DNA of 57,094 nucleotides, counting the filler, from Dimargaris cristalligena (lineage: Eukaryota), in the NCBI GenBank assembly GCA_003614675.1. It is 3 parts of 3 records of this genome, joined end to end, with 100 filler letters (N's around TTAATTAATTAA, not from the genome) between each part and the next. Parts side by side here need not be neighbours in the genome. Positions count along the whole stretch, not along the records: positions 1 to 19,017 come from ML002745.1; 2 more parts are not named here. One strand, written 5' to 3'. Shown piece after piece: positions 2,269-38,176 of this stretch (position 1 is its first letter; every line of letters starts with the position of its first letter). A model generated the notes under the pieces. It did not search any database, was not told the DNA's origin, and saw only the letters and a program-made list of their open reading frames with translations. Made by a program: the position numbers and the translations under genes.

Positions 2269-5109
2269 CTAAACATTCAGGCCGCCAGCACCAATTTCCT
2301 GGTCAAATTCGGACCGGCTAATCCTTTTCCGCTTCAACTTTTTATGTAGCCGCTCTTCACGCTGCAACTCAGCCCAGTCGTCGTCGTTGTCGTCTCCAGC
2401 AGCAGCGTCGGCCTGACGATCGCCTCCCTCCGCCTGGGCTTCCTTCAACGTGCGTTTTTGTTGCTTCTTTAGTTTACGGCCTTGACGCCGCTCCGTAGCC
2501 ATGGTTTTTTTAGACCAGGCCTCACTCTTTTTGTGTTCCGGCAGGGTATCGCCAGTGTCCCTGGCATTCCTAGAAATATAGATCCCCAAACATTATAAAC
2601 GATACATCCGGGAAATATTAGTAAAGAGGGGCGGGTCCATACGTCTAATATAGGCTATTGGGTACACTGATGAGGGGGAGTTGGTCCCCTGCCGATTAAA
2701 TTCAACCGAATACTCATGTTTGAAGAGCCAGAGAGGGAGAGACTTACCTTTTCTCTTGACGAACCACCAGTTCCTTTTCCAGGCGCAATAACCGGGCCTT
2801 TTCGCGATAGGGGTCGGCATACTCCAGCTCGTCCAGGTTAAATTGGACCGGCGTAAAGCGAACCTTACGCGGGTTGAGTTCAGGCATGCGGGGTAGCATC
2901 AGGAGGGCGTAACCCTCGGCCGCTTGGCCCAAATCCAGATCCTTAAGTCGGAAAATGTAGTTGGCGTCGTGTTTGGAGTAGGACCGTACGAATGAGACAA
3001 AGGCCCGCATGCCCTTGTCGAAGAGGTCACGGTCTTTCAGGACCAGGTCCCGGGCGTCACTGAGCAGCTGGTCATTGGCCGGGTCCTTAAATTCCACGTG
3101 GCCAGTGTCGTCAGCGGTAATGAGGCCGGTTTCATGCGACTTCGCCGAGTCGTGGAGATAAGCTTGGGTTTGCATAGGAATCTTGCGGATTTTGAGAAAT
3201 TCTATTACCAGATATTTCGAAGGTGCAACGCAGAATAAGAGGGAGACACATAAGTGATAAATGACGTTAGAAAGTATTCATGTGCACGAAACATGAATGA
3301 CCAAGTTGAAGCCATGCCCAATTGCCTAGAATAGAGTTATGAAGCAGCGTGTCTCCTCTTCCCCCCCCCTAGCTTCGTCTGTTGGAGGTTAATTTAGCGG
3401 TTCCAAACCTGGGCAACTTACCAATATAAGTCTCTTCCCGCCCCCAGTTTAGAAAGAGGAAGGCCATGCCGCTCTTTCCAGCGCGAGCCGTTCGACCACA
3501 GCGATGGGAGAACACCTTGGGATCCTGGGGAGCATCGAATTGAATGACCATATCAACATTTGGAATGTCCAGCCCCCGCGAAGCCACATCGGTACACACC
3601 AGAACCGCGCCCTGGTCCACGGGCACGCTGACGTAGTCATTGTACGTCGACGTTCGCTTCTTAGGCTCCATTTGGCCATGCAGGCCAAAAAATCGGTAAC
3701 TCTGTAGACAGGGCAGTCGGTTCAGGAGTTGGTTGAAATAATCGACGCAGGCACAGGTGTTGAAATACAGAATCACCTTCTTCTCCGGATACTTGAGAAG
3801 AAGGCGGATCAACTGGCCAAGTTTCTGGCGTGGATTACACAAAATATACTTGATCGAAAGTCTGTGTAGGAGAATGGGTGGTATATATAAGGTATAGGGG
3901 GGAAATGAGTGGCAAGGGTAAGCGCATTTAAATTTTGAGCAGTCGTGAGGCATAGGAACTGAGCTGAATTCAGTAGGGAACCGCAGTAACGGAGGACAGG
4001 GGAAGGTGCCTTGTTAGTAGTGTAGTCACTCGATACCCTGGAGGTTAGGCGGGTATCTTGGCATGCAACGCAGTCCATATTAATAAATTAAACATAACAC
4101 TTACTGCGACGGGGTTCGTTGCTCAACCCGAGACTTGGTGTCCTCAACCTTAACGACAATCCGGGCGGGGTTTCGTAAGCCGGCACGCACCAGTTCCGAA
4201 ATGGCATCGGTGACGGTTGCAGAAAAGAGACCAGTACGGCGTTGCTTTGGGATTACCGAAATGAGATTCGTTATCGCTTTAGAGAAACCCATATCCAACA
4301 GGCTGTCCGTTGGGATAGTTTGAAAGTAGGTAGTGTCAAGAGGAAGATGCAGGAAAGGGCCAAGGGGATTAGTATAAAGTATTCTTTCGTGGCCAATAGC
4401 CTTGGTGTGGATTTCGGTGCCGGATAATAAACTGTGTAAGGATGAAATCGAATAAAAGTAGATCCGTCCCGAATCCCATTTGGACTTAGGAAGTAAGATT
4501 TCTGAATATATATATATAATGCAATGTAATTCCACTTTACCGGTCAGCTTCGTCGAGAATCAAGACTTCAAGTTCCTTGAGGTTCATACCAAGATTGCCG
4601 GCACCGGCCACGCCCTCCCGACCAAAGAGAAGACCTTCCAACCGACCAGGGGTGCCGACCAGGATATGGGGCCGAAGGGTGCTGTACTTGGCGGCATCGT
4701 CGGCCAGGGTAGCCTCCCCGCCCATTAATAGTTGGTGCCGTAGATAGCGCGACGAGGTGGGGGCCGATGACTGTTGGGCGATGAAAAGCCCTAGCGTGTC
4801 ATAAATCTGCTGGGCCAGTTCGCGGGTCGGTGAGATAATAATGGCCCCGATTTCGTGTCGCTTCAGCGCCCGCTCGCGCTTAATGAGGATCTGGAGCAGG
4901 GGAATTAGGAAGGCCAGGGTTTTGCCCGACCCGGTGACGGCCTCGACTACCACGTCACGGCCTTTGGTCAGGTGGGGTATCGTGGCCGCCTGCACCGGGG
5001 TCATGCGCTCGAAGCCCATGGCTTCCACGGTTCGGAAGATCGACGGGTCCAGCGAGGACTGTAGGGTCTGCCAGGGGCCCGCAAAGGCCGGTACCGCTTG
5101 GTTGGCCAT
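2269..5109 (-). CDS. SPB4: DEAD-box rRNA helicase Spb4/DDX55; complement(join(2269..2569,2748..3201,3422..3861,4105..4302,4541..5109)), 653 aa
   Basis: Q motif GFERMTPVQ, Walker [26 protein letters not shown] across intron 1, [14 protein letters not shown], Spb4-type [16 protein letters not shown] and a basic tail. All four introns are GT-AG and join in frame (1962 nt). Confidence 0.95.
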
Positions 5110-5807
5110 GGTGGATTAGGGAAGGTGCGCTGGATAAACTATTGAAGGTGAGGTAAGAGAAATTAGAAATTAAATGGGAAGCAATAAGGGATTCTCTATT
5201 AAGTTTATTAAAGTGGGAGGCAGTTATGGCATTCCATTCAGTCGCATGGCCAGTGGTAGGGCAGCTGCGAGAAAAGGAAATATAAAAGAAGAAAAAAAAG
5301 TATATATACTCGAAGCGCAATATTACAAATTCTGGGCGACTGTGGTGATAGGTAAAGAGCAACTATTGTTATAGCTTTAATAGATGAGATTCTGCTTAAT
5401 CTCCTGCTAATGGGAAGGGTACTTGGTTAATATATGGTTCTCTGTTTCTTTCGACTCACACATCTTTCTTTCTTTCTCTCTCTACCTACCTATTCTTACG
5501 TCGAAACTTGGCTCATTTTTACGTTGGTAAGTAATACCAAAGTACCAACTTTGAGCGGGACATGCCTTTGCTAATAAATAATGCCTTCTATAAGCTATTC
5601 GGGATATATATGGGGCAACTGTACTGCACTCGGGTCCCCAGGTATGAGCATTCTGAGATATAGGGAAGTATACTATAAGGTAAAACCTAATGAAGAAACA
5701 ACCAAGTTTATTTATATACACAGTAGGTGATCTAACTCCAATATTAATTACAGATGCGATACTAATTCAATAAGACCACCCAATTGGTAAAGTGGACTAA
5801 GAAACGC

Positions 5808-6107
5808 CTAATATATTCCATTCAGGGCATTCTCTTTCGCCTTTTGGGCCTGATAGTTGCGCTCTTCCTCTTCGGGATCAAAGTAGGTATCGGCTGATGA
5901 ATAGTAGTCGTAGTCATTGCGGTAGGAGGATTGCAAGTGGGCTAAATTGTCGGCATTTTCCTTGACCCGGCCCATCTTGTCACGGATTTGGCAACTCTTA
6001 TCACGGCACCATTGGGGAAACCTATCTCTAAGACCGGCCGGGTCATCGGTAGGAGCAGCGCAGGCATTGAACGTATTCACGGTCAGGGCAAGCAGAGCCA
6101 GAGTCAT
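5808..6107 (-). CDS. small secreted protein of unknown function (99 aa from ATG 6107)
   Basis: Hydrophobic N-terminus MTLALLALTVNTFNACA-AP followed by a hydrophilic mature part with a Cys pair (WCRDKSC). TATAAATA-like box on the minus strand near 6276-6283. Confidence 0.6.
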   Translation of the reverse strand: MTLALLALTVNTFNACAAPTDDPAGLRDRFPQWCRDKSCQIRDKMGRVKENADNLAHLQSSYRNDYDYYSSADTYFDPEEEERNYQAQKAKENALNGIY

Positions 6108-7570
6108 GGGGATACGAGGCAACACATTCGAGAGCGATAGACTGATAGACCCGCGGAGAGGCCAAAACAGTGAATGGATAGAGGAGGTCGAACAGAATAT
6201 AGAACGGCTGTGGAGAGAAATCAGAGAGTGAGACTGTGGTAATTGATTCTAGATAGAGGGGGAGATGGCCGGGCTATTTATACCTCAACATCCCTCACAA
6301 ACCGACCCTCTAGGGCGAACGGGGGAAGTATACCCTCGAACATTATTCCCCCGTTGGTCAGCTGTTCAGTCTTGCGGCGCCGTGGAACGGTCGATATAGG
6401 ACCCCACGCCACCTTTCTATCGAAAGAGATGGCTCTATTCTAGAACCAAAGGATCCTTTGCGGGTCCCGGTACAGTGAAGACAAGGGCCCATAGAGCTCG
6501 TAACACCCTTACCTCTCTTAGTACGCTTCCCTATTAGCCGTTTAGCTCCTTCCGTTGTCTACCCATAGACTGTTCGACTGTGTGCCCTTCCTTTCCTCCT
6601 TTCCCTAGTTACCCACGGGTTGTATAGCAGTCATTAGCTTTCAATGGAAATGGGGGAGGTTCCCCGTCCAGCCGCACAATGGAAATGCCCGGAGTGTAAA
6701 CCCGGCGAGACCAATTAAAAATGCATGATTCCCTAAACTCACTCTAGCGTAAATTATTTACTTATCGTCCCTCCCATTGGCAGAGTGGGTCGAATGGCCC
6801 CTATATTCTTCCGTATGGTACACTTTGTCCGCAGTGTCGAACGGTATTCCCGACATTTAGGTAAATAGAGTATAAGGTATTCGGCCAGGCTTTACCAATA
6901 AGGGGGATTCGGCTATCGAACATCAGTCAAACTAAATTATAAACAATGTGGCATGGAAGAAAATCCTTCACGCTCAGCCGTGGTTAAGTCGACCCGTCCG
7001 TGTATTATTTATTATCCTCTCTACTAGCACAGCCTGGGGTCAGCAGTTAACCTGCGAGCCCACCTATGGCCCAAACAAGATTTCTAGCGCGGGACTATTC
7101 ACTGGTCCTTGAAAAAAAGCGTGATAAGTCAGTGAGGATATCACATGAGTGGGTCGTCGTCGTCGAAGAAGCCGGTATATGGTATATAGTGTTGGGTAGT
7201 TCGGGTTTATAGTAAAGAGTTGTCAGTAAACCGGATAAAGAGTGGCGGGTGTCATAGGCCACTTACTTACTCGCGCACTTTCCCCATACCAGCAAAGGGC
7301 TTAGCGGACTTTAGTTAACCCATGCATACAGGCGACACAACCCACACCATTCTACCGCTCTACCATTTCAATTTTATTCTATACTTATTCAGTTACTCCC
7401 ATTCCTTGAGCCGACTCGACTTCCTCCCTTCCCTTCCTATTTCCTTATTAGCCCTAGGCTCCTCGCAGTTCCATCTTGGGGTGCATCGCTTTTTAGTATA
7501 CCTCCTGTCGCTCTTTATATAGCGGCGCCCGACCCATTATATTGGCCTGGCCCAGTCTTCCGCTGCCCGC

Positions 7571-9228
7571 ATGTCATCGGTCCACAGTATTTTCCATGGT
7601 ATCCGGGAATACCTAAACCCCCTCTTGAAAAACTCCAAATTCAAAGAAACCGGCGTCCTGACTCCCGAAGAGGTAGGTTCTATTGGGAATTTCGGCCAGG
7701 GGTGCCCTTCTCCAGCGTATAGGTGGCCGAGTATACAATACTGAAATAGTATACCCTTCTAGTTGACTTCGTATAAAGGAATCGCATATCCACATATATA
7801 TCTATATAGAATACAGCCGCTGCGATGGTACCTGTGTACCCACCTACCTGTAGAGACAGGTTAGGCCCGGCCCTTCCCACTTTGTACGGCACTGCTGGTA
7901 TGGACTCCGGCGCCTTCGTATTCACCCCTATACATTACCATATCCTATTCTAATGTCCAGTATCTCTTTCCCATTCACTGACCCATGTCCATTCTCATTA
8001 GTTCATCGCCGCCGGTGACTACCTGGTATACAAATGCCCTACATGGAGCTGGTCCGCCGGAATTCCCAGCAAGCGCCGTGATTATTTACCCGCCGATAAA
8101 CAGTATCTCATAACCAAAAATGTACCCTGTCTGCGCCGAGTAAGTGACCTCAACTATGGCTCCGGACAGGATGGCTTCGCTGATGAGCAGGAGGCCGAAG
8201 ATGGGTGGGTCACCACTCACAACGGAGTTCGACGGGAGCAGGGGCCCCACGATGACATGGACGAAATAACCGAAGACGTTCTTCATTTGCAGCTCGGAGG
8301 TATCCCCACCGGGAGCCAGATACCATCCCCGAAGAGTGCCGGGGTACTCTCCCCACCGGGCCTATCGACCGCCCATGATGCCGAGGAGGTCATCCCCTCC
8401 GATATCGATGAAATACCCGATATTGATGAGGAGTGGGATAGTCTAGGGCAGAGCCAGGACGAGGATGAGGAGGATGACCCAGCTGCTCTACCCAACGACC
8501 ACGGCCGGGACGCCCCAGTCAGCGACAACATTCTGCGTACGCGAACCTACGACATCAGCATCACCTACGACAAGTACTACCAGACCCCGCGTATATGGCT
8601 ATCGGGTTACGATGAAGCCGGCTCTTCGCTGCGCCCGTCCAAAATTTTTGAAGACATCTCGGAAGACCACGCCAAGAAGACTGTCACTATCGAGCCCCAT
8701 CCCCACGAGAAACTGTCATTGGCGTCCATACATCCCTGTAAACACGCCAATGTCATGAAAAAGATTCTGACCATGTCCCAAGAGAGCGGCCGGGAGATCC
8801 GGGTAGACCAGTAAGTTGGCAGCCATGTTTGTAGAATATCCCCCGGATAGTTAAATACGGCTGGGGGCCAGCTTAGTTGTTCCCCTCGGGCACAATAGCC
8901 GACCTTGGCCCGCGTTATATGCGATTGGCCAAAGTGCTCATCGATAGCGCTTACCATCTTTCATGTATATGTAAAACACATTTCAGTGGAAAATGTAGGG
9001 TTTTTGCCGCCAACCTCTTTGAACTTTATTCCGGCTACTAATCACCCCTATTGCTTGAATATGCCTCACTGCTTTACCTCCCTGCCTGCTGTGTCTATGG
9101 AATCCTTTCAAAAACACTGGGGTTACCAAACCGATAATCTTTATAGGTACCTTATTATTTTTCTCAAATTTATGTCAAGCGTCTTGCCAACTATCGAATA
9201 CGACTATACCTACTCGACAGACGCCTAA
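7571..9228 (+). CDS. ATG3: autophagy E2-like enzyme Atg3; join(7571..7672,8002..8810,9147..9228), 330 aa
   Basis: SKFKETGVLTPEE|FIAAGDYLVYKCPTWSW, YLPADKQYLITKNVPC, acidic flexible region, RTYDISITYDKYYQTPR, catalytic HPCKHA, VDQ|YLIIFLKFMSSVLPTIEYDYT. GT-AG introns join in frame (993 nt). Confidence 0.97.
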
Positions 9229-10302
9229 ATGGACTAACCCGCTTAGGCCGTGGCCAATGTGCCAGGCCAATGTCCAGTGGCTATCAAGGTCTGCATTCGG
9301 ATGATATATTTTTTAAATATAAACAATTACACTTACTCGCCGTCCTTACTCATCATTTTCACTCCACAATATTTTTATTGAGTTCCTTTCACTCTCCGCA
9401 TCCTTGAACTATGTAATATCGTTTTCTCTTCGGTTACCTTCGCCCTGCTCTTCTATACCCGTAGCCCATTCCTTTATCATCATTAGTCAATTTATTTGGT
9501 CATTTATATTGCGTTGCCCTTATTTACGGCATTTCATCCACTAAATCATTGGTTATAAGTAATGCCAGTGTACGGAAGGGGGCTCTCGGGTCGATCGGCA
9601 CAGGCCGGGCTAGGTTGTAATGGTAAAAGAGGGAAATGGCCCAAGTGATTATATTGGGAATTGGCCAAATGTTCATTTGCGTGGCTTTACAATAACAACT
9701 CGGATAACCATGGGCACTTGGCCCTACTAAAATGGCGGCGTCTTCCTCACTCCTTGACTAAACAGTGCGCTGGTATCCAGTCTCGGTACCCAATCTAATG
9801 GTAAAAGACCCCAGGTAATCTAATTTTAGTTGATAGTAGTCAGGGACCTTCGGTGTTCTTCAGGAGAAAGTGCGTCCACCAGCCATTGGCGATAGTCACA
9901 AAGTAGATACTACGAGGAGCCGCTGGTTCCGAGTGCTTTTGGGGATTTTCCTCAGCAGTGGCAGTAACGTATAGCCCCTGTATAAATATTTTATTCGACC
10001 CAAACTACCCACCCCCACCCAGACTTAATCGACCCACTGTGGCCTAATGGAGGCACTCTCGCTTTAACTTGGCGACATTATATTCACCAGCATCAGTTTA
10101 CTAGCTGTTCCTCTTTACTTGTCTCGAATCCCCAGTATAATTATATGTATATATATGTGTGTGTGTGTGTGTGTGCGAATGTGTATTACGCCTGGTGGCA
10201 AGTCTGCTATGTTATAGGTGTGATAGTCCATGTAAGCCAAGGGGATAACCAATATACGAGTGAAGGCCCCTACTGAGAAACCGTGCCAATTTACACCGAC
10301 CC

Positions 10303-11860
10303 TTAGTCGCTCATTAGTTTTACTAAATCAGCATCGTCCACCTCGAGCTTCGTTTGGGCCAGGTTCTTGAATTTGGCGAACAACAACTGGAATTGATCAT
10401 TAGGGATACCGGTATAACCCAGCAAGCCAAGGCGGGACAGGAGGGCGGTGCGGCCACTCTGGGCGGACAGGATAAGCGCATCGCTGGTGGCGCCGACATC
10501 ATTAGGGTTGAGGTATTCGTAGGTTGACCGATTCTTAAGCATCCCGTCCTGGTGAATCCCCGATGTGTGACGGAAGACGTTTTGGCCAATGATGGGTTTG
10601 TTGGCGGCCAGGATCATGCCGCTGCGGGCGGCTACCATCCGGCAAACCCGCGTGAAATGGGGCGTATTGAGCTGGTGGGTGGCATGGTAGTGGGCTGCGT
10701 GGGTGGACAGGCACATGGCCACCTCCTCGAGGGCGGCATTGCCGGCTCGCTCACCCATGCCCAGCATCGTGGCATCCACCAATGTGGCTCCGGCTTCAAT
10801 GCCGGCCAAGGTATTGGCTACGCCGAGACCCAGGTCGTTGTGGGTGTGTACGCCCCAGATGGTCTAAATCAGAGTGAGAGAAAGACACAGTTGCCCCATA
10901 AAAAGGTTATCGCATCCATATATCAGGGTTCGGTATAAGCAGAGTTAGTTATCGGATAGGTGGGCATGGCCATAACGTGGGTCCCAGAAGGACCAGCGTC
11001 GATGTCAGGTAGTCGTCTATTTGGCCGAATGACCTAAACCTTGGGCCGGCTGCACCCATGCAAGGCTGGGTCAGCCATCGACGCAGTACAGTATTTTGCC
11101 ATGAACCGGCCTGAGTGGCATGTGCGTCGAGTGAGGAATGGATGCAGTCCCCCTCCACGAGTATTAATCTAAGGGCAGTCATGAGGTCCTTTCCCCCCTG
11201 AGAATATCTAATGTAACTTACCTTTTTCGACCCAGGCGTCCGCTCGACACAGTATTTGACCAGTTGATGAAACTCCGCTGGGATACAGCCGCCCACGGTA
11301 TCCCCAATCAACGACAGGGTAGCGCCCTCCTCGATGGCCACCCCAAACACTTCGGTCAGGAAATCGGGGTCGGTACGACCACCGTCTTCAGCCCCGAATG
11401 CCACATTGGGGGACAAGGTCCGGGCCAGTCGAATCCCCTCCCGCACGCGGCGGAGGCACTCGGTCCGGGAAATACGGAGTTTATGTTCGAGGTGAATATT
11501 GGAAGTGGCGATAAAGAGGCGAATCTGGAAGCGCGGGGCATCCTTAATAGCCTCATAGGTGCGCAGGATATCGCTCTCCATGGTCCGGCAGAGCGCACAG
11601 ATCATAACCGGTTGGCCAATGTGCTCCCGGTGGGTCATGTGGTGGCCCACCTCGCGGGCGATGCGCCGGCAGGTGTCGAAGTTTTGCTCCGAGGATACCG
11701 GGAAGCCGACTTCAATAATGTCGACCCCCAGCTCCGCCAGGCCCTTGGCGATTTCTACCTTGGAGTCAGCGGTGAAATGGACGCCCGGGGCCTGTTCGCC
11801 GTCGCGCAGAGTGGTGTCGCTGAACAAGATAAGCTTGGGATCCGCGTTGATGGCCGACAT
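10303..11860 (-). CDS. 2-isopropylmalate synthase family (DRE-TIM) enzyme, short form without regulatory domain, MAM-like pocket; complement(join(10303..10863,11222..11860)), 399 aa
   Basis: DTTLRDGEQAPG, GVDIIEVGFP, FIATS.IH, metal ligands HTHNDLG, GERAGNAALEEV, HTSGIHQDG...YE. Donor AAG|GTAAGT at 11221 and acceptor TTTAG at 10864. Stop follows subdomain II directly. Confidence 0.92.
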
Positions 11861-12925
11861 GGCTAATAGACTATGGATCCGTACGATGGGGGGAGGGGAA
11901 GATACTTTACACGTTATATGTTACGCAGATTGTAACCGTATGGGGTTGGCTGGATATTAGACGGGGGCGAGGGATGGTCTCTGGGCGAAGTTAAGGAGAG
12001 GAAGGAGGTTGGGCTAGATTCCAATGAAACTCGGCGTAGGGATAGATTTTATAGTGGGGAGACCTGCACGTTGTGCCCCCCCCCCCTGCCGAAGACAGCT
12101 CTCGTAAACCACTTGCCGTGAGGACCGGTCTGTGAGGAGTAAGCGTATAAATTCATTAGACTCCCCTTCCTCCAAACCAGTGAATGAGCGACCTTCCTTG
12201 AGCCATATCCAAGTCTCCAAAGGAGGGGGGGTTATAATATCCGGATATTCATTGCATGAATTGTCCTCTCGTCATGCGACGCATGGCTGCAGTGGCACCC
12301 ATATCTACTCATCCGTACAGATTCTAAAATAAGCTCCCCTTACATGGCTGAATATTGCAGACGATGAGAGTTCCGCGATTGGGAAGCCGCTATCCCCCTG
12401 ACCTCGGTAGGATGACTGACCACTTCTATTTTATTTTATTTTTGAAAAAAAGTACAATTTCCTATCCCGCTTGATAATGAGGTGAGTGGGGGGAGGTTAA
12501 ACCAGTAGATTTGGCTCTGCAGGGCTTTTGGAGTGGGGGAGTTCCAGCGGACTCACCACACCCAGGGGTGCCTTGGAAATATAAAAGCAATAAGTAGACG
12601 GGGATCGGCAATGGAGGTTTTTCAAGGGGTGCGGCTTCGACCGGTGTAGTGCATTCGGTGTCCCTCCCCATCCGTGCTTGGTCATCTATCTATAAAGAAA
12701 AATGCCTGATCCAGGTGGCGTCAGTCACCCTCGCATGGGCTTTTAAAATAGCAACGGTGACGGACCGGGAATGTGCTTGGAGAGGTCCCTCATTCAGCCC
12801 ACCCGCTTTTTATAAGCCCTAATATTAGTAATTAGACACAGGTGATGCCAGCCCCCCTCCCCCCGCACCATCGCAGCGAGCCACCCAACCTCCACACTAA
12901 GGCACAAGTCAAGTAGGCATCGTCG

Positions 12926-14534: not shown

Positions 14535-15040
14535 TAACCACACCTGGTACTATAGGATCATCCTATGTCATATAACTTTTCCCCTTCCAGACTCCTTACT
14601 TTGCACTAATCATTCAAGTACTGATCCAAAGACTCTTCCAGTTACCATTAGAGTCTTTCAGACCCTAACAGCTGTCCAGTTAGCCTATTTTTCCTATACC
14701 TTAGCCTTAGTAATATCCTTCTCTAGGGACCTCCCTCTAGAGCTATCCCTGTGTATATATACTTAGGCCCCACTGGTACTGGTTCAATTCCTTAGCTTAT
14801 TCCTTACCCCCTAGTTTATCCCAATAAACTCTACATATGCTTACCCCCTTATGCTGATTAGTAAGTGCCCACTACACATCCCTTATATATACCTACATCT
14901 GTAACCTTTATTAGTTAGTATTATACCCCATACCTGACACTAGTAATCCACTTAGCCAAGCCTGAGCCCTATCTACCATTGGAAGCCTACCCTCAGGACT
15001 CTTGACAGACTAAGAGTAGTTAAGCCAGGCAACAGTGCCC
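14535..15040 (+). mobile_element. degenerate repeat/transposon relic, family A copy 1
   Basis: Reverse complement of ~18390-18800 and of ~19325-19430 plus ~20045-20350; direct partial copy at ~18185-18310. Many stop codons, no CpG. Confidence 0.7.
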
Positions 15041-18184: not shown

Positions 18185-18800
18185 CCACACCTGGTAATAT
18201 AGGAATTATTATATACTATATCTTTTCTAGCCCTGGATCCAACTGTCCCACTCATCACTCTAACATTGGCCAGAAGATTCTTCTAGTTACTATGAGTCTT
18301 CCAGTTATTAGCAGACTATGGCAATACTAATTATATATGAGTAATATTCAGATAGGCTATATTATGAAAAAATTATTGGATGAGGTAATACTTTGCTACC
18401 TGGATTAACCTCTCTTAGTTTCAAGAGCCCTAAGGATAGGCTTCTAATAATAGGTGGGGCTTAGACTTAGCCAAGTGGGCTACTAGTGTCAGGTGCAGGG
18501 TATGGTACTAACTAATAAAGGCTTAGCAGTAGGTATATGTAAGGAATATGTAGTAGGCATATAGACTAGTCAATATAGGGGGAGTGAGTATATATAAAGT
18601 TTAATAAGGTAAACTGGGGAATAAGAATAAGCTAAAGAATCTAACCAGTCCCAGTGGGGGCTGGTTATATATACATAGGAATAACTCTAGAGGGAGATCC
18701 CAAGGGAAGGATACTACTAAGACTAGGGTAAGGTAAATAGGCTAACCAGTCAGCCATGAGGATCTGGAAGACTTTAGTGGTAACTGGAAGAGTGTTATGA
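18185..18800. mobile_element. family A relics: direct fragment (~18185-18310) and inverted copy (~18390-18800)
   Basis: ccacacctggtaatatagga matches 14538 directly. ggcttctaataataggtggggcttagacttagccaagtgggctactagtgtcagg is the reverse complement of 14932-14988. Confidence 0.7.
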
Positions 18801-19017
18801 TGGGCTATAAGTAAGACCAGGTACCACAAGATGGACAGGACTTCGAAAGATGGAATATAGGTTTATTAGACTAAATATCAGAAAGAGAAAACAAAAGAGG
18901 AGTTGCAAGCTAAAGAGCAAGCTGTGGGGGAATGGTTGGGGTTATATCCAAACTCGAGGGGTAGGAGAAGAATGATGATGACTAATAAATTTAAATCAGT
19001 AACTAGGTAATATGGGG

Positions 19018-19117
19018 NNNNNNNNNNNNNNNNNNNNNNNNNNNNNNNNNNNNNNNNNNNNTTAATTAATTAANNNNNNNNNNNNNNNNNNNNNNNNNNN
19101 NNNNNNNNNNNNNNNNN
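19018..19117. other. assembly gap with TTAATTAATTAA filler
   Basis: 100-bp N-run with a central all-frame-stop spacer. Confidence 0.98.
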
Positions 19118-22517: not shown

Positions 22518-23420
22518 ATAAATTTCTCACAAAAAATAAATTCTATAGCTAAAGTGAATAAACGGGATATGCAGGGGAGAAGTGCAGGAGGCTTTAAAAT
22601 GGAAAGGTATGGGTCGATTTTTCACATTCCTATTCTAGCAATTATTTTCCGTTGTGCGAGCCCTGAAACGATCTACCCAAGTTAGATGTAGATCGAGTAA
22701 TGGATGCCGATACGCGATAGAGCACTGCTGTATAAAATAATAGTGGTGAGCAGTTTAATTCATCGTATTTCCTTACGCTGGTGAAATTATTATTAAACAA
22801 CAGCCCGATTCCCAAGGCTAGAGGCATCACAATTACATCTCCACCAACTGCATAGCATACTGTCCCAGCCATCCATCAGAAATCAGTAAATATTTATTAG
22901 GTATAGCCAAAAACAATCGGTAGAATAGCGCACCCTAAAAAAATATGTAAATAAGTACAGCCCCCAAGTCCCTGTAAATAACCAAAGGCACTCTATCGGC
23001 AGATTGTGCAGAAGGAAATTGATAAGAATGTCCGATATATATTCTTTCAAAGGTTGGGTTACGAATTGTCCTGATTGGAGCGACGGTGAGATGCCTGGCG
23101 ACCATTCAATTGTAAATTCTATATAGAGCAACCCTTACCAAAAAACTACATACCGCTAGACCAACAATCTTAATAATACCGTACCAAACAATTCAGGGGA
23201 ACCGGTTAAATATAAATCAACTTCAAAAGCCCACGGCTCTATGGAGTCTAAGTATTTACGATGGAATTACTTAAAACAGTACCATCAACTAACCACTCTA
23301 CCCCAATCCTCCGGTTAAACTAGTATTACTTGCCATTTGTCCATATAATATCATTTAATTATTTACTGCGTTCACTCATTAAATTCACAGACTCATCGAA
23401 CCTTTCTTCATTTATTCACA

Positions 23421-26400
23421 ATGTCCGGCCCCGCTTCAGTTGGTTCCTCCAACGACTTCCTGTTTCCCGTGGTTCCTAAAAATTTCCAGCCAACTTTTGA
23501 CCTGCCGCTCGGTAAGCCCCCCATCATTAATTCGGGGTATTCAGCTCGGGCATTTGATATACACTTTCCCTATTCGCAAGGCTTCGACAAATGTGTATTT
23601 GAACAGACAGTTCAACTGGCTACTGCCATTCTTCTGGGACGATATTACCGCCAGCCAGCCATTGCCTTTGCCCACTGGCATACGAAAATCAGACCCAGCG
23701 AGCCTTTCGAACGGCTAGACGAGCGACCCAAATTGATTCTGGCTCAGGTGAATCCCAGCGCCCCACTATCCACCTCCATTTTACAATACCGCGAGAATGG
23801 CGACCCTCCTGCCCCATCCGGCATGGTTGCTGAGGTAATCCTTCACACTCGTACGGGCGGAACTACTAAGAGGCATACCCCGCCTGAATTAGGTCCAAAT
23901 ACTGGCCAGCCCAAGGCGGCCGAGGCGGATCCACGTGACACTGAACTATTGGTCCAAAGCACCGCGCGCCTAGTGATCAGTTGTACGCTTAGCCAGGGAT
24001 ACGTCCAGATAAAGGCGACCTACGCTAAAGCCTCATATCGTGATTCTGCCGTGGGCGAGTTTGTCGGCCAGCTAGGCACTGTATTTTCTGCGGTTGTTCA
24101 GGTATTGGAAGAAGGCCTGTCCACTCTCATTCGAGATATCCCGTGGGTTAGTGAACAAGAGCGAGCCCGCGTCCTAAACTATTCCCGCATGGCCGCGCCG
24201 TTCCAGGGGGACAGTCGGCCCATCCATCTTATATTCAGTGACTGTGCTCGGCGCTTTCCCGACCATCTTGCCCTGGTCGACGGCCCTGAGGAATGGACTT
24301 ACGCCCAACTAGACTATGCCAGCTCCGAACTGGCCCGGGTTCTAGTAGATCAATCCGGGGCTAGCCCTGAAGTTCGGTTCGCACTCCTTATTCCCAAAAC
24401 TATCGCTTATACAATGGCTATTTTAGCCGTGCTTAAGTCCGGTGCTGCCTATGTTCCCCTTGACCCCGAATACCCCGTTGATCGAATCCAGTTTGTATTG
24501 GAGGATAGTGGCGTGACCCTTTTAATCGTTGCTGAATCTGTTCTTGGCAATGTACCAGGCCAGCAAGGGATACCGACACTGGTCGTGGATTCGTATATCC
24601 AACAACCGGCCCCTGCGGCACCGTCGGATTTCCGGTCATTTCCTTCGTCTCCCAGCGATCTTGCCTACATTATCTACACCTCAGGTACCACTGGTCGACC
24701 CAAGGGGGTCTTGATCGAACACCGGGGCGTGGCGAACTTTGCCACCGATCCCTACTTGCGCGAAGAGTACGGCCCGGGGCACCGGGTCTATCAGGCGGCA
24801 TCCGTCGCCTTTGACGGCATTCTTGTGAATACATTTCGCACGCTTTGCGCTGGGGGTACACTTGTCATCCCCACCGACAACTTACTCGAAGACTTGCGAA
24901 ACGTTCATGTGGGAGCCATTATAACCTCATTTCTATCTCGGCTGGACCCTACGAGTTTTCCCAACTTGAAGACAATTGCAATTGGAGGAGAGCCCCTTCT
25001 ACCCGAACAACAGGCTCGCTGGACACCCCACTGTGTCATAGCCAACCATTACGGCCCAACAGAAGTAACGGTTTATAGCAACCTGGCTGCAATCGGGCCC
25101 GATGACGATGTCACCATTGGTAGGCCAATCGACAATGTATACAATCTGGTGGTCGACGATGAACTTCAGCTAGTGCCTGTCGGGGCACCTGGCGAACTAC
25201 TAATTGGTGGTGTGGGGGTTGCTCGGGGCTACCAGAACTTACCAGCGCTAACCGCCAATACATTTATTTCCAACCCACATGGGGAGGGTCGGGTATACCG
25301 TACCGGGGACTACGTCCGATGGCTTTCAAACGGAACCGTCGAATTTATCGGTCGTATTGACAACCAAATCAAACTGCGCGGGTACCGGATCGAAATCGAA
25401 GAGATTGAGAATACCGCATGCCAGTTCCCGGGACTGAAACAGTGTGTGGCGGTTGTGGTTCAGGAAACGTTGGTTCTCTACGCTAGCCCTGCGAACCTCA
25501 ACCCAACTAGTCTATTGGATTTTTTAAGAAGCCGGCTATCCAAGCAAATGGTGCCTGAACTAGTAGTGCCGATAGAAGACTTTACTGCCGCATCGTCGGG
25601 CAAGCTGGATCGCAGATCTCTACCTTCAATTAGCCACTTGCTATCGAAGAACTCGCTGTCATCTTCTGATCGGGATAATATCAATGTGCCACATTCTGAG
25701 ATTGAGGAGGACCTTCGGCAGATATGGGGCCAGATTCTACAGCAAGACCCTGATCGCATCAGCACCACCGACCACTTTTTCCGAATCGGCGGTGACTCCA
25801 TCTCGGCCATTTTACTAGTATCCAAGGGGCAGCAGATTGGGTATAAACTGTCCGTGCCGCTAATCTACCAGTACCCCGAGCTCCGACAGCTTGCCCAAAA
25901 CATCGAAAAAGTCGCTAACCACCAAGCCAATGGCCACTCTGCTTATCAAGCTCAGATTCAGGGTGAAGTAGTATTGGCCCCGATCCAGTGCTGGTTCAGT
26001 GCCACGGGTCTTTTAAACCCCCACCACTTCAATCAATCGTTTACGTTGAATATCAATCCCAGGGCTACCTTATCATTAGCAGCCATTTCCGATGCCCTTG
26101 TGGCCCTGGCCAACCACCACGACACTCTCCGGGCCCGATTCCAGCCTAACGAAGCCAATCAGTCGTGGGTCCAGACTATCCCTACAGTCACCGCCGACCC
26201 CACCGACTTTTTCTTGGTGGAAGAGACGGTTTCATCCGAAGACTATGCTGACTTTATTCTACGGGTGCAGTCCAGCCTTCATCTCACTACGGGACCTGTG
26301 CTGGCAGCGGCCCTGATTCATGATCCGGTGAGTACGTCCCGGTCCCGCCTATTTGTCACCATCCACCATATATTAGTGGACCTGATTGCCTGGCGTATTC

Positions 26401-29400
26401 TGATTGAGGACTTGAATACCCTATTTCGAGGCGACCCTCTTCCACCAAAGACATTGCCCTTCCAAAGCTGGACATCCCAGCTGGGTGAATATGCAGCAAC
26501 TCTTTCGGCCGATATCTGGCCCACCCAGGTGGACTCTAAAAGGACAATTCCGGACATTCGGGCACTCCTTCCCCCTCCGGGACTAGATGGCCCCTGTATC
26601 CAGGCAGCCCGCCTCTCCACTTTCTCTAAATTTGATTCTGAATCCACCCAGGCATTGCTATTCCAGCTAGCCCCGCAACTGCGTGTCACTCCACACGATC
26701 TTCTTCTTGCCACCTTCACCCACGCCTTTGCCACTACCATTGGGTTAGACCAGGTGACTTTTTGCATGGAAGGACACGGTCGGGAGCCGTGGTTAGCAGA
26801 CCAGGACATTACCCGCACAGTCGGCTGGTTTACTGCTCTGTATCCTCTTGTTCTTCGAGTTGAACCCGATCAGTCCTTACTGGACCTATTGCGCCATACC
26901 AAGGAATCCCTACAGGAAATCCCAATGAAGGGATTCCCCTACTCCGTATTAAAACACATGCCCGGAGTTCCAGCGGAGGAGCGAGCCAAGCTACAGGCCA
27001 AGACTCCGGACCGGTTAGATGTCCAATTCAACTATTTTGGGCGCTTCAACCATTCCGGTGGTGACCTCAGCGATGATATTTTATCCATCGAATGGTCGGA
27101 CTACTTCGGCCTACACGACTTTGCTCCCCAGGAAAAGGTCGTCTATGACATTAACCCCATGCCCACCGTCGTTGGCGATTGTTTACGTCTAGTTATGGAG
27201 TACAATCCACTGGTCTATTACCGAACAATTGTCGATAAAATTATGGGTAAATGGCGCGAGAATCTTGTTCAGCTCGCCGGTGTTATCAACCAGCCGCAGT
27301 TCATTGGTATAGAGCCTCTTCTGACGCGACATGATTTTGCCCACCTTCAGCTCTCTGACTCCGAATTCCAGGAGACTGTTGCCGAACTCCGCCACCGTCG
27401 CATTCCATTGGCTGAGGTGGAGGCCCTGCTACCCTGCATTGCGCTCCAGGGCGGTCTGCTAACCGGACTGTCAACCGACAAAACCGCCTATTTGGTGCAG
27501 GTTGCCTTCAAAGTAAATGGACCGCTAAATATCGATCGATTGCTTAAGGCCTGGCAGGAGGTTTCCCAGCAGCATACCTCCCTGCGCACCGTGTTTCTTG
27601 AGTCGTCGTCGAAACACTCCCGGGGATTTATCCAGGCCGTCCTTGGGTCGTGTTCCACAGTCTGGACTATTTCCGACCAGCCCCTAGCGTCGCTAGAGGA
27701 ATTCTTGACCCAAAACCGCCAGCGAGGGTTTACACTGCAGGAGCATATGATCCGCAACTTTGTGTTCCCTACCGCGGATAGTCAGGTGCACGATGTCATT
27801 GTGACCTTCCACCATTCTCTGTGCGATGGCTGGTCGCTGTCCCTACTACTGCACGCGTGGGCGGAAGCTTACCACTACCCCAATCAGACTGTATCGAATC
27901 CAGCAGCCACTTTTACTTCTATCGTTCACCATGTCGGCCAACTCCATTCGGAATCCGCCCAAGTCTTCTGGGGTGAATTTTTACAGGGCGCCCTTACTAC
28001 TCCTGCACCTTTAATCCTCCTTGACCACGCCGGTGTATCTGATTGGGCCGAATACGTAACCCAGATTGATATTTCTAAAGCTGAACTAACGCGTTGTTCA
28101 CAGGCACGAAATGTGACGGTGGCCACTCTACTACGGGCGGCCTATGCTCTAGTTCTGGGGCGCCTGCTTGATCAGGACGATGTAGTATTTGGCGTGACCC
28201 TGTCTGGACGGAATCTAAGTGTGTCGGGGATAGACCGGACCATTGGCCCCTGCACAAACACACTACCATTCCGCGTACGCTTAGACCGTTCCTCCATCTT
28301 TACCTGGCTGCAAACCCTCCACCTGGACCTGGTGGCTATGATCCCGTTCGAACATTCAGTGCTAACTGACATTATCCGTTGGACCTCAACCGGCCAAACT
28401 GGACCACTGTTCCAAACGCTTCTGGGGATGGAGAACTTCCCAGACCTCGTAGCCGACCCTACGCACGACTTTACCCTGTCCGACATGCGAATCCACGAAT
28501 TCACGGAATATCCCTTAGCCGTTAATTACATTGACAGTCCTCATGTAATCAAAGCTAAGGTATTCTACAACACGTCCAACTATTCCGAGGCAGCTATAAG
28601 CCAAATAATTGGCATGCTTCAGACCATTCTAGGGCAGATTCTATCAGCGGATACCAATACAACTGTGGACCAACTGTCGCTCGTAACCCCACTGTCGAAT
28701 CGCCAAATTACCATTGTGGCAGATCGGGGCAACACAACGGCCACTGTTCAGCCCCTATCGCTTGTTCAAGTTTGGGATACTATACTAAGCGACCATACCG
28801 ACCTCCAGGCGTACATTTCAGAAGTGTACAGTCTGTCGTACGGCCAGGTTGATATGTTGGCTGATATCCTTGCATTTCAATCAGGGCAAACTCTTGGGAC
28901 ACCCAGCGCATCCATAGTCGCCCTTGTGGGCAGTGCCGAAGATTTACTCGTTTGTTTGGTGAGCGCAATCAAGATGGGTGCTCATCTCACCCTTTTGGCA
29001 GCTCCCTGCACTCTTACCCAACTGATGCTGTGCATCGAATCGACAGCGAGTCAGGTTGTATGGCTACCATCTACGAAAACCGATGATATTCAATCGCTTC
29101 TGAATGGGATTGCGGAACTCATTACTATACCGAATGCAATTGATGAGCACGTTAACGAAAGGCTCTTACTTTGTCAATTCAATCCCAGTTACGATCTCCA
29201 GGACCTCAGTTTGACGTTCATTTCCCAAAAGAATTCGGACGACCCGGCATGGTTCACGGTGAATAGCCAGGGTATCCAGCGAACCCTTGCCTCCACCCAG
29301 TCTTACATTTCTGAGATTGACCATTTTATTATTGACCATTCTTTGGCACTCGCTACCCCCCAGGCTGCCTGGCTCATCCTCTCGTGCCTATTTTCGCATA

Positions 29401-32400
29401 AAACGATTATCACGTCCGACTCTTCCCTAGGCGAAAATACCAAATCATCTACGTATCATGTTGTGGATGTAAATTGTAAATGTGATGGCTCACTTAAAGG
29501 TCGCACAATGGTTCTTTGCGACCTAGCCCAAGCTCGCTGGCCCGAATCCACCAATCTGATCAAGCCCACTGATATATGCATATCATTTTTTGATACCGTC
29601 TTCCACGGTCACCAACGTGCCACTATGGAGCAGTTGGTATCCCGGTCTTTTCTGTCGGTGGATAAGGCCCCAATGAACTATTCCCTGGACGTCGTGGATG
29701 GCCAAGGACATACTTGCCCCACCGGAGTCGTTGGCCACCTTGCATTTTCCGATACTCTGGGCGCCAACAAATTTAGTCCAACACACCACTCGGTTCTTGG
29801 CTATCAAGGTAATACCGGCCTCGTGCACATGCTAGGTCCCGCCTCCCAGAGAGCAGTTGCTAAAGGTCAACAAGTTCACCTTGGTCTACTGAACCAGACG
29901 CTAGTTGAGGCAAGTGCCCTTTCCCCAAGGAGTTTGATACTTCCCGATGGTCAACTGGTCGCTTTGGTAGCAGGTGGTTCTGACGAGGATCTATCCCGAT
30001 TAGAAGAGGACATGGCCCCACCCGTTATTCCACTGGCTCTAGTGCCACATGCCATTATATCGACCCAGGTTTTCCCCCACGTGACCGATCTCGCTGAGCA
30101 TCTTCTGCTTCCCTTTGCGCAGGCTTATCTTACCGCCCTGCCACTGCGCTACTCCAAATCAATGTCGGAAACAGAATGGTGGCTCACTGTAGCGGTGAAT
30201 GAGCTGAATAGTTCATTAACGCACTCTACTGACTATTCCGCTGCCCCTCTTCCCCGGACTTCAGGCAATGCTACACTGGCCCAGTTGGAACTGCTCCAAT
30301 ATCGCATTCACTCTAAATTCGGTGTCGCCATGCCCCTGGGTGACCTGATTAAACACGCCGATCTCCGAGTGCTATCTTCTGTTATTACGGAGAGAATGAA
30401 TGGGGGCCCATCTAGGCGCTCAGGTGAATCCAGCGTCGGAGTGACTGACGTTAGCCTACCATCGCATTCGCTTCTCCGCTGTCAGACTCGGCCGACTACC
30501 CACCGCCAGCAACAAATATGGTCTCTCAGTCGGATTAGCAATTCCGTTAACGACTTTTATCACCAATGTGTGATCACCTCCAAAACCCCACTCCAACTGG
30601 CAAACGTCCAGCGGGCTGTCGACCATTTAACCGCCTCATTTGGGTCTCTTCGGTACCAGTTTACTCCTGTCCGGGGTGTACTGACTTGTCATGTTTTACC
30701 TCGTGTGCGAACTGAAATTAATGAAACCCAGTTGTCCATATCCCAGCCACTGGCCGTCGATGAGCTATTTTCACAGGATACCCGATTCAACCTTGGGCGA
30801 GGGGTCCTCGTTCAGGTGGAACTGTATCATTTTACCAAACCTATTGATAGTGATGCAAGGTCGGCCGTGTGCTTTCGAGTTCATGACCTTGCCGCGGATA
30901 GCCTTCTCTTTAATAGCATGGCCAACCATTTGGCTATGGGATTATACGAAATTAGCCCAATCAGCTATAACCCATCGTTGACCGAGTTCCACTCAGATTG
31001 CTATTTTAATAATGAAACTAATAGCAATTATTGGAGAACCCTTCTCTCTGAACCCCCCTCCCAGCTAAATCTGCCTCTGGATCACCCCCGTCCCCTTCTC
31101 CCCAATTTCCAGTCCGCCTCAGTCGGCCTTGGAATTGACGCTGATCTGGTGTTGTCCCTTTCCAAATTTATAAAAACGGATTCATTCACTCGGGGTGATA
31201 TTTGGCTGGCACTCTTTGCCTCATTTCTAAAGCGATTGACGGGCCAGGATGATATCATCGTCGAATGCAGCGGTTTGGAAGGCCCTTCCTGTGACCAACC
31301 AGTCGGAACTACTCAACTACCCGCTGCCCCTATTCCCATCCGCTGTTCTGGTAACTGGCCAACCCGTATCTCTCATTTGGCTGAACACATTTGCCATCAG
31401 CGTCGCCAGTCTATGAGCTATCCAACCCCATCAATTGAGTTTTATTCCTCACTGGTGAATGACCCGGGCCATGTCCGACTAGCAGGTCTGGCTCAGGCTC
31501 GGGTTTCCATTTTTCCAGATTCCCATGACCAACTTGGCTACAGTAGTGCCCAGGTGGTCTATCCCAATACATCCCGATCGCTATTCACGTATGACTTGGA
31601 GCTGATTATCCGAGAGACGGCTTCCGTGTCGCATTGCAATATTCGCTATAATCCGGATATAATAGAAGATTCAATGGCCAAGCGCTTATTACACAACTTC
31701 CTCCACTATGCCCAGGCCTGTTTACACCCCGAACAGGCGTGGTCCGATGCTTCCATGGTATCTTCCGATGAGTCCCGCATCTTACTCGAGAACTATGCCT
31801 TTGGTGGCCTATCATCTGTCATACCGACCGAGGAGCCGCCTGCGAGTATTTTATGCCAATTCAACCGGACGGTGGGCCTCTTTCCCGATTGTCCTGCCGC
31901 CGAGGTATCCGGACAAGTATGGACTTACATGTATTTCATGGATCGTATTCAGTTAGTGGCTGCAGGGCTGCGCAATGCTCTGATTCAGCCGGGAGATAAA
32001 ATCGGTGTTATTGTCGCCAATCATCCGGACACAGTGGTCGGAATTCTGGCGACTTGGACCGTCGGGGCAGTCTACGTTCCAGTGGATTGTAAACTGCCTG
32101 TTAAACGTCAGAAGTATGTCATCGAGGCGGCTAACTGCAGGCTCGTTCTAAACACCACAACCATGCCCACTCAGTTTCCTGGTACTTTGGTCCTTCCTGA
32201 ACTACTAGTGGGCAATGGCGATTCTCATGGCCAGTTTGACGTATACCATAGTCACCCCGACGACCTGGCATACGTTATATTCACTTCGGGGTCGACGGGT
32301 CTACCCAAAGGTGTTATGGTCACCCATAGCAATCTCAATTACCAGATTAGCAATCCAATCTTCCAAGAGCTACGAGTGGCAGAACAGCGGGTCATGGTGG

Positions 32401-38076: not shown

Positions 38077-38176
38077 NNNNNNNNNNNNNNNNNNNNNNNN
38101 NNNNNNNNNNNNNNNNNNNNTTAATTAATTAANNNNNNNNNNNNNNNNNNNNNNNNNNNNNNNNNNNNNNNNNNNN
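38077..38176. other. assembly gap with TTAATTAATTAA filler; supplies the artificial NRPS stop
   Basis: N-run identical in design to the first gap. Confidence 0.98.

Follow-up and report, generated by a model that had tools for sequence, protein, structure and literature searches.

A truncated isopropylmalate synthase-family enzyme of Dimargaris cristalligena with an altered substrate pocket and a candidate role in 2-oxo acid chain elongation

Here we describe a gene of the 2-isopropylmalate synthase (IPMS) family in the fungus Dimargaris cristalligena (assembly GCA_003614675.1), encoded within a 57,094-nucleotide stretch of DNA, the whole of which is referred to below as the window. The gene product lacks the regulatory domain of IPMS and resembles, at several substrate-pocket positions, the methylthioalkylmalate synthases (MAM) of plants, which suggests that it may act on a 2-oxo acid other than the IPMS substrate 2-oxoisovalerate. 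The window is not one piece of genomic sequence: at 19018-19117 and 38077-38176, artificial spacers, each consisting of 44 N, TTAATTAATTAA and a further 44 N, link what are three separate contigs, and gene neighbourhoods cannot be read across them. The gene lies on contig 1 (1-19017) and is organised as follows.

10303-11860, minus strand: IPMS-family gene in two exons, with a spliced product of 399 aa
11222..11860, minus strand: exon 1 (213 codons, residues 1-213), encoding the N-terminal three quarters of an HMGL-like TIM barrel
10864..11221, minus strand: intron of 358 nt with GTAAGT...ATTTAG ends
10303..10863, minus strand: exon 2 (residues 214-399), encoding the rest of the barrel, followed by the post-catalytic subdomain HCS_D2

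The start codon ATG at 11860 is the first ATG past an in-frame stop, the stop codon TAA (10303-10305) follows 186 exon-2 codons, and alignments of homologues run across the splice junction without a gap. As a preliminary description of this DNA had predicted, splicing yields a protein of 399 aa, and the translation is identical in every letter to D. cristalligena protein P0003 (KAJ1977780.1 / RKP35963.1), present in two NCBI proteomes and labelled there only ‘2-isopropylmalate synthase’ or ‘pyruvate carboxyltransferase’. An independent second sequencing study covers positions 10188-12500 with a single contig that differs from the window by 12 substitutions and no indels, and each of the four exonic substitutions is synonymous. 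No difference separates the gene model from that of NCBI, and the gene is intact. Just 3′ of the stop codon lies a (CA)n/(TA)n microsatellite (10132-10187), where the contigs of both public data sets end.

The architecture of P0003 is that of the Claisen-condensing DRE-TIM metallolyases (IPMS, MAM, homocitrate and citramalate synthases): an HMGL-like TIM barrel (PF00682, 165.6 and 79.6 bits on the two exons) is followed by a post-catalytic helical subdomain (PF22617, HCS_D2, 79.7 bits). The leucine-binding LeuA_dimer domain (PF08502) was absent from P0003 in the Pfam search, the alignment to the LeuA model stops at about position 383 of 516, and tblastn of the whole window with three full-length IPMS queries, at E values up to 10, returned the two exons as the only matches and nothing past residue ~400. 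These results agree with the earlier statement that the protein ends after subdomain II. Extra exons encoding a regulatory domain, which the preliminary description had named as evidence that would speak against it, were looked for in window DNA by the same tblastn and no remnant was found; the adjoining gene has its 3′ end only ~1 kb from the stop codon. An ESM Atlas search brought back only generic short bacterial IPMS-family clusters. Because leucine acts through the LeuA_dimer domain, according to excerpts of PMC8468904, P0003 is predicted to be leucine-insensitive and free of leucine feedback.

Profile scores place P0003 with the LeuA type and not the Leu4 type, as its DTTLRDGEQ motif had already led the preliminary description to propose: the whole protein reaches 423.3 bits against TIGR00973 leuA_bact (cut-off 598.7), compared with 54.6 and 46.9 bits for the exon halves against TIGR00970 leuA_yeast. 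It nevertheless falls below every IPMS equivalog cut-off, its best score being 451 against 532 (NF002086), and so does AtMAM1 (467 against 532), whereas a Coemansia IPMS taken as control passes these cut-offs with 692 bits. The homocitrate models (286.7 against 462.9 and 241.3 against 413.55) and citramalate models (180 against 450) are below cut-off as well, and the models of naturally short IPMS, IPMS_Sufob and IPMS_Lepto, are far from reached (299 against 600 and 208 against 500). P0003 is classed as a fungal LeuA-type family enzyme without the Leu-binding domain.

The catalytic apparatus is complete. Its elements outside the substrate pocket motifs are the following.

11792..11818, minus strand: DTTLRDGEQ (D15-Q23), with catalytic Arg19 and metal ligand Asp20, both in invariant columns and equivalent to BjMAM Arg89/Asp90
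10840..10854, minus strand: GVHTH, with Gly217 in place of a conserved Ser (AtMAM1 290) and with His219 and His221 as metal ligands
10552..10554, minus strand: His317 of SGIHQDG, the catalytic base (equivalent to BjMAM His388)

The catalytic Arg, the Asp/His/His metal ligands and the catalytic Glu and His are all present in P0003, whose catalytic residues map to Arg89, Asp90, Glu227, His288, His290, His388 and Tyr399 of BjMAM. R19, D20, H219 and H317 are invariant in 66/66 aligned sequences, and none of the 14 sequences from Dimargaritales, the order to which D. cristalligena belongs, deviates at E158 or H221. An AF2 model built from the 66-sequence alignment has a pLDDT of 94.7 and a pTM of 0.90. 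Among solved structures, the MAM synthase 6e1j resembles the model most closely (TM 0.94/0.92, 43% identity, whole chain); it outranks homocitrate synthase and truncated IPMS structures in the fold comparison and also gives the top sequence match (4e-98). We infer that P0003 would catalyse an acetyl-CoA:2-oxo-acid Claisen condensation of the kind carried out by the IPMS/MAM/homocitrate-synthase family.

The substrate pocket, on the other hand, departs from that of IPMS. Three of the changed motifs are the following.

11501..11527, minus strand: QIRLFIATS, with Arg114 (11519-11521) in place of the pocket His (Mtb H167, AtMAM1 186, BjMAM1A V182)
11384..11398, minus strand: FGAED, with Gly156 (11393-11395) in place of Ser216 and with Glu158 as the catalytic Glu, followed by GGR as in MAM
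11291..11314, minus strand: SLIGDTVG, with Leu184 (11309-11311) in place of Asn250 and Gly186 (11303-11305) in place of Pro252

At the eight pocket columns, the canonical IPMS residue and its counterpart in P0003 are as follows.

L143: Leu in canonical IPMS, Leu90 in P0003
H167 (AtMAM1 186, BjMAM1A V182): His, Arg114
Pocket Glu (BjMAM1A E223): Glu, Ala154, just upstream of FGAED
S216: Ser, Gly156
Ala of the EDAGR motif (EDGGR in MAM): Ala, Gly160
N250 (AtMAM1 257, BjMAM1A A253): Asn, Leu184
P252 (AtMAM1 259, BjMAM1A P255): Pro, Gly186
AtMAM1 290: Ser, Gly217

FGAED and SLIGDTVG lie exactly where the preliminary description had put them, while QIRLFIATS was read correctly and placed two to three bases off (~11503-11530). 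The Ser→Gly and Pro→Gly changes it had proposed at Mtb S216 and P252 are borne out by G156 and G186 in the mapped alignment columns, and the MAM-like ring of the motifs that it had noted is seen in EDGGR, in these two glycines and in the glycine at the AtMAM1-290 site.

In excerpts of PMC8490860 and PMC11532901, the origin of MAM from IPMS is attributed to loss of the C-terminal domain together with L143I, H167L, S216G, N250G and P252G, with the Ser→Gly and Pro→Gly replacements as the key active-site changes. At these five sites, which separate IPMS from MAM, P0003 keeps the Leu only and has Arg, Gly, Leu and Gly at the others, so that both key glycines are present. The four BjMAM1A residues reported to contact 4-methylthio-2-oxobutanoate (V182, E223, printed as E233 at first mention, A253 and P255) correspond to R, A, L and G. 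For column mapping, 254 stored homologues with lengths of 374-700 aa were aligned, 240 of them outside and 14 within Dimargaritales; the set is non-random, half of it having come from a MAM-seeded search. The mapping is sound, since the alignment gives M-G-A-A for P0168 and L-T-G-A for P0184, both from A. thaliana, and thereby reproduces the rows of AtMAM3 and AtMAM1, respectively, at AtMAM1 positions 186/257/259/290 in Table 2 of PMC6603273. Full-length IPMS of fungi, plants and bacteria read L-H-E-S-A-N-P-S at the eight columns. The majority states among the 240 homologues outside Dimargaritales are H (187), S (183), N (200) and P (191), and none of the 240 has Arg at the pocket His site.

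An unbiased scan took the 155 positions at which 183 canonical sequences show conservation of 90% or more and checked them in nine Dimargaritales clusters; 83 positions are kept in at least eight of the nine and 23 are lost in at least eight. The lost positions include H114, E154, S156, A160, N184, P186 and S217, that is, every tabulated pocket site but Leu90, and also cover two strands close to the metal site, GARQVE and TINGIG. This pattern of retention and loss argues for remodelling of the pocket and not for general decay. The pocket is predicted to be enlarged by three glycines and one alanine, with a Glu lost and an Arg gained, and would therefore favour a 2-oxo acid that exceeds 2-oxoisovalerate in length or polarity; the His→Arg replacement in particular may select a polar or carboxylated substrate.

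For the evolutionary origin of these features, a maximum-likelihood tree was computed from 47 rows picked from ~260 stored proteins (9 Dimargaritales, 6 full-length Kickxellomycotina, 2 other fungi, 13 bacteria, 10 plant IPMS or plant variants, 1 red alga and 6 MAM), and domain states were scored on it by Pfam. A 100/100 branch separates all fungi from the plant and MAM sequences. The Dimargaritales form a single clade (100/98) on a long stem, have long branches and stand beside the full-length IPMS of Ramicandelaber (88/76), whereas the MAMs form a 100/100 clade nested in a 100/100 plant clade. A constraint that unites Dimargaritales with MAM lowers the log-likelihood by 92.7 (p-AU 5e-6, in a test run after the tree was known), and P0003 thus fails to descend from plant IPMS within Brassicales by both tree and test. 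On this topology the resemblance of P0003 to MAM is convergent, because the Dimargaritales clade sits beside fungal IPMS and the MAMs inside plants; the preliminary description had supposed as much. The regulatory domain is absent in 17 of the 47 rows, which needs at least three changes, one of them on the Dimargaritales stem; together with the tree, this count indicates that domain loss and Ser→Gly arose once in the order, independently of plants. The position of Dimargaritales in the gene tree agrees with the species tree of PMC9866270, in excerpts of which Dimargaritales and Ramicandelaberales branch off first within the subphylum.

Two legume proteins annotated as ‘probable IPMS’, P0079 (Phaseolus) and P0096 (Vigna), keep the regulatory domain and have L at the His site, G at Ser216 and G or A at Pro252; these may represent another independent remodelling of the pocket.

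P0003 is one member of a larger family. A protein search with exon 1 as query (lengths 374-2000 aa), in which the best 120 of 7,998 scored candidates were considered here and below, returned at least nine Dimargaritales clusters, three from D. cristalligena and the others from Tieghemiomyces parasiticus and Dispira. The three D. cristalligena clusters are 100, 81 and 72% identical over the exon-1 query, the two paralogues being 82% and 76% identical to P0003 over the whole protein, and they form one clade in the tree (100/98). All nine Dimargaritales clusters are 399-413 aa long and none contains PF08502, whereas all nine Kickxellales/Ramicandelaber clusters are 576-605 aa long and have this domain and a canonical pocket. 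With near-identical second copies the nine clusters amount to 14 sequences from three genera. In 14/14 of these the Ser216 site is Gly and the His, Glu, Asn, Pro and Ser217 sites are non-canonical, and the pocket residues vary among the paralogues: Pro→Gly at the P252 site is particular to P0003, the other Dimargaritales paralogues having T, A, S or M. With all nine clusters truncated and pocket-altered, P0003 does not appear to be a lone specialised copy beside a normal IPMS, and the ‘isopropylmalate synthase’ annotation of the Dimargaritales proteins is probably wrong or incomplete.

A 4.8-kb contig in run X5 (record 11), most likely carrying one of the paralogues, matches the gene only in short conserved patches (10532-10563, 10826-10843, 11636-11666 and 11791-11819). 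The Dimargaritales also include a second, deep clade, formed by P0024/P0126 (Dispira) and P0029/P0127 (Tieghemiomyces), in which the pocket residues are bulkier (F, M, W, G, V, A) and which has no D. cristalligena member among the matches listed; it may have another substrate class than the P0003 clade.

We put at about one in two the probability that P0003 is a leucine-insensitive Claisen-condensing synthase for a 2-oxo acid other than 2-oxoisovalerate, with a role in homologation. The gene would have descended vertically from a full-length LeuA-type IPMS of early-diverging fungi. On the Dimargaritales stem the C-terminal leucine-binding domain would have been lost and the pocket Ser replaced by Gly, after which duplication would have produced three copies in D. 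cristalligena and several in Tieghemiomyces and Dispira, with divergence at the pocket positions; in the P0003 pocket, three side chains would have been removed and charge shifted from Glu/His to Arg. In the proposed reaction, a divalent metal on D20, H219 and H221 would bind the 2-oxo acid, H317, E158 and R19 would enolise acetyl-CoA, and condensation would give a 2-substituted malate, without leucine feedback and with a preferred 2-oxo acid that is longer or more polar and not 2-oxoisovalerate. Such a reaction would open a homologation cycle that would probably feed unusual amino acids into the metabolism of an order rich in nonribosomal peptide synthetases (NRPS). Only tentatively can this be extended to the order as a whole, in the sense that Dimargaritales might have dropped the leucine-regulated IPMS and the truncated enzyme radiated into diversified homologation synthases supplying non-proteinogenic amino acids to an expanded NRPS repertoire.

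A homologation role would be analogous to that of MAM, HphA, HtyA and AMT7, and a link to NRPS peptides is suggested by HtyA and AMT7 and by the wealth of NRPS genes in the order. With MAM (AtMAM1/MAM3, BjuMAM1.1; 6e1j) P0003 shares LeuA-type IPMS ancestry, the missing regulatory domain, Gly at the Ser216 and Pro252 sites (as in AtMAM1), EDGGR, a small residue at AtMAM1 290 and the manner in which the IPMS equivalog cut-offs are failed. MAM differs in having its own origin, inside plants and not inside the 100/100 fungal group, as well as in Leu/Met/Val in place of Arg at the His167 site, Gln/Glu in place of Ala at the pocket Glu site and Ile in place of Leu at the Leu143 site; P0003, whose barrel begins at residue 9, also lacks the N-terminal transit peptide of MAM. 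Closest by tree are the full-length IPMS of Kickxellomycotina (Ramicandelaber, Coemansia, Kickxella, Martensiomyces), which share the core and subdomain at 50-51% identity but are 564-605 aa long, contain LeuA_dimer and have the canonical pocket L-H-E-S-A-N-P-S in 10/10 proteins tabulated.

Among fungal enzymes, HtyA (echinocandin homotyrosine; PMC7778625) and AMT7 (AM-toxin; PMC8102738) are described in excerpts of these papers as IPMS-like proteins that condense a larger aromatic 2-oxo acid with acetyl-CoA and feed an NRPS. This is the role proposed for P0003, the comparison being one of described roles. HphA, the cyanobacterial benzylmalate synthase for homophenylalanine and homotyrosine, is likewise without the regulatory domain and derives its specificity from the same pocket columns; it is a bacterial enzyme and was compared by tabulated residues only. 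At the first four of five positions in a table of PMC12961565, IPMS has Leu, Glu, Ser and Asn, HphA has Ala73, Asp157, Ala159 and Met186, homocitrate synthase has His, Arg, Thr and Ser, and P0003 has Leu, Ala, Gly and Leu. At the fifth, where column mapping is less certain, IPMS has Glu, HphA Ser242, homocitrate synthase His and P0003 Asp. The decisive A73 of HphA falls at the Leu143 site, where P0003 keeps its Leu.

Several observations weigh against a specialised role for P0003, and most of them bear on the main alternative, namely that P0003, alone or with its paralogues, is the leucine-pathway IPMS of Dimargaritales; a mycoparasite dependent on its host would then have shed the regulatory domain, and the pocket would have drifted with 2-oxoisovalerate remaining the physiological substrate. 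We consider this unlikely, though well short of negligible. It would account for the even split in domain content, with 9/9 Dimargaritales clusters short and 9/9 Kickxellales/Ramicandelaber clusters full-length, and the Dimargaritales clade occupies the place in the tree expected of a housekeeping gene. Some true IPMS are short by nature (NCBIfam IPMS_Sufob and IPMS_Lepto, the latter LeuA2; PDB 4ov4 with ketoisovalerate); at ~370-414 aa and without LeuA_dimer they resemble P0003 in outline, and Leu90 is unchanged along with all catalytic residues. The preliminary description had proposed to look for a separate full-length IPMS in the genome. Full-length IPMS with canonical pocket and domain were found in Kickxellales and Ramicandelaber; no full-length LeuA-type IPMS of Dimargaritales was among the best 120 of 7,998 proteins, where one scoring like the Coemansia proteins would have ranked, and the Leu4 type was not searched for. 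One paralogue may consequently still make isopropylmalate, and the earlier caution that the P0003 type could be the genome's only IPMS still stands, because no full-length protein from the order is listed. A search with the regulatory domain of a Coemansia IPMS gave 32 matches, all from Kickxellales, and missed even the full-length protein of Ramicandelaber, so that it is insensitive for Dimargaritales. Nor is the pocket significantly more divergent than the whole protein among the three D. cristalligena paralogues, with 3/10 pocket differences against 73/399 overall (p = 0.27) in one comparison and 5/10 against 94/399 (p = 0.06) in the second. Aconitase, isopropylmalate dehydrogenase, aminotransferase and NRPS genes, with which HtyA and AMT7 are clustered, are all missing from the gene's own 19-kb contig, a short contig and hence weak evidence, and an NRPS frame elsewhere in the window (23349-38076) was rejected as a cluster neighbour since it lies on a different contig. 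What speaks for a changed substrate is that the six pocket residues replaced in 14/14 Dimargaritales sequences are the majority state in 183-224 of the 240 bacterial, plant and fungal sequences, that one genome holds three paralogues differing at pocket positions, and that P0003 scores under all IPMS equivalog cut-offs in the way AtMAM1 does; a leucine-pathway IPMS of the Leu4 type may also lie elsewhere in the genome.

That P0003 instead replaces another primary enzyme, as a homocitrate-type synthase (2-oxoglutarate or 2-oxoadipate, with Arg114 on the distal carboxylate) or a citramalate synthase (pyruvate), seems improbable. Relative to IPMS the pocket does gain an Arg and lose a Glu, the strand after the metal site reads GATLVD, which is closer to GATIIH of the Sulfolobus homocitrate synthase than to GARQVE, and apple has feedback-free citramalate synthases derived from IPMS, as stated in excerpts of PMC7826400. 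The corresponding models, however, score under the LeuA models and under their own cut-offs, the residues Leu, Ala, Gly and Leu of P0003 do not match the His, Arg, Thr and Ser of homocitrate synthases at the positions of PMC12961565, and three glycines enlarge the P0003 pocket, whereas the apple-type protein P0186 is bulkier at these columns (I, F). Still further from what we expect is a relic under relaxed selection, without useful activity, in a parasite no longer making leucine. The long branches of the Dimargaritales clade and the literature, which in excerpts describes D. cristalligena as lacking several primary-metabolic enzymes, would be in keeping with a relic; open frames with all catalytic and metal residues in 14/14 sequences of three genera, the 83/155 conserved positions kept, the 4/4 synonymous exonic differences and the high confidence of the AF2 model are not.

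Chain-elongation synthases derived from IPMS and free of its regulator are already known; what appears to be unreported is an independent fungal lineage with the same two glycines, a pocket Arg seen in none of the 240 other homologues and an apparent loss of the canonical form throughout the order. No paper naming both ‘Dimargaris’ and ‘isopropylmalate’ was found among those searched. The passage from IPMS to MAM, by domain loss and two glycines, is a textbook case of recruitment of a primary enzyme to specialised metabolism, and P0003, if read correctly as a homologation synthase, would provide an independent replicate in early-diverging fungi by which the repeatability of this route can be tested. 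It would also suggest that homologated amino acids are made in this order of mycoparasites, the numerous NRPS products of which lack description. The leucine autotrophy of Dimargaritales is put in question, which bears on the difficulty of growing them free of their hosts.

The remainder of the window holds the following features.

~2269-6248, minus strand, contig 1: DEAD-box Spb4-like helicase
~7315-9228, plus strand, contig 1: Atg3-like gene
23349-38076, plus strand, contig 2: NRPS frame of ~4,900 aa, uninterrupted, with its first Met at residue 25, incomplete as it runs off the contig end
40353-40670 and 44647-44925, plus strand, contig 3: fragments with DEAD-helicase and Sec63/Brl domains, in a 40%-GC stretch

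The NRPS frame contains three A-T units, with core motifs near residues 444-813, 2979-3351 and 4517-4881, and six condensation-domain stretches by Pfam; lying on the second contig, beyond an artificial spacer, it gives no evidence for a gene cluster. In excerpts of PMC6784888 and PMC9866270, D. cristalligena is credited with 27 NRPS genes, mostly solitary on short contigs, and NRPS genes are described as far more numerous in Dimargaritales than in other Kickxellomycotina. Contig 1 ends in a 7-kb AT-rich tail, in which an 81% inverted repeat occurs and 12 open reading frames (within 12-19 kb) gave no Pfam family. The repeats, at 14624-15005 and 18421-18801, form two pairs that are 81% complementary and 3.4-4.0 kb apart, and may be a degraded transposon. 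The fragments on contig 3 suggest a Brr2-like helicase gene that is intron-rich or degraded.

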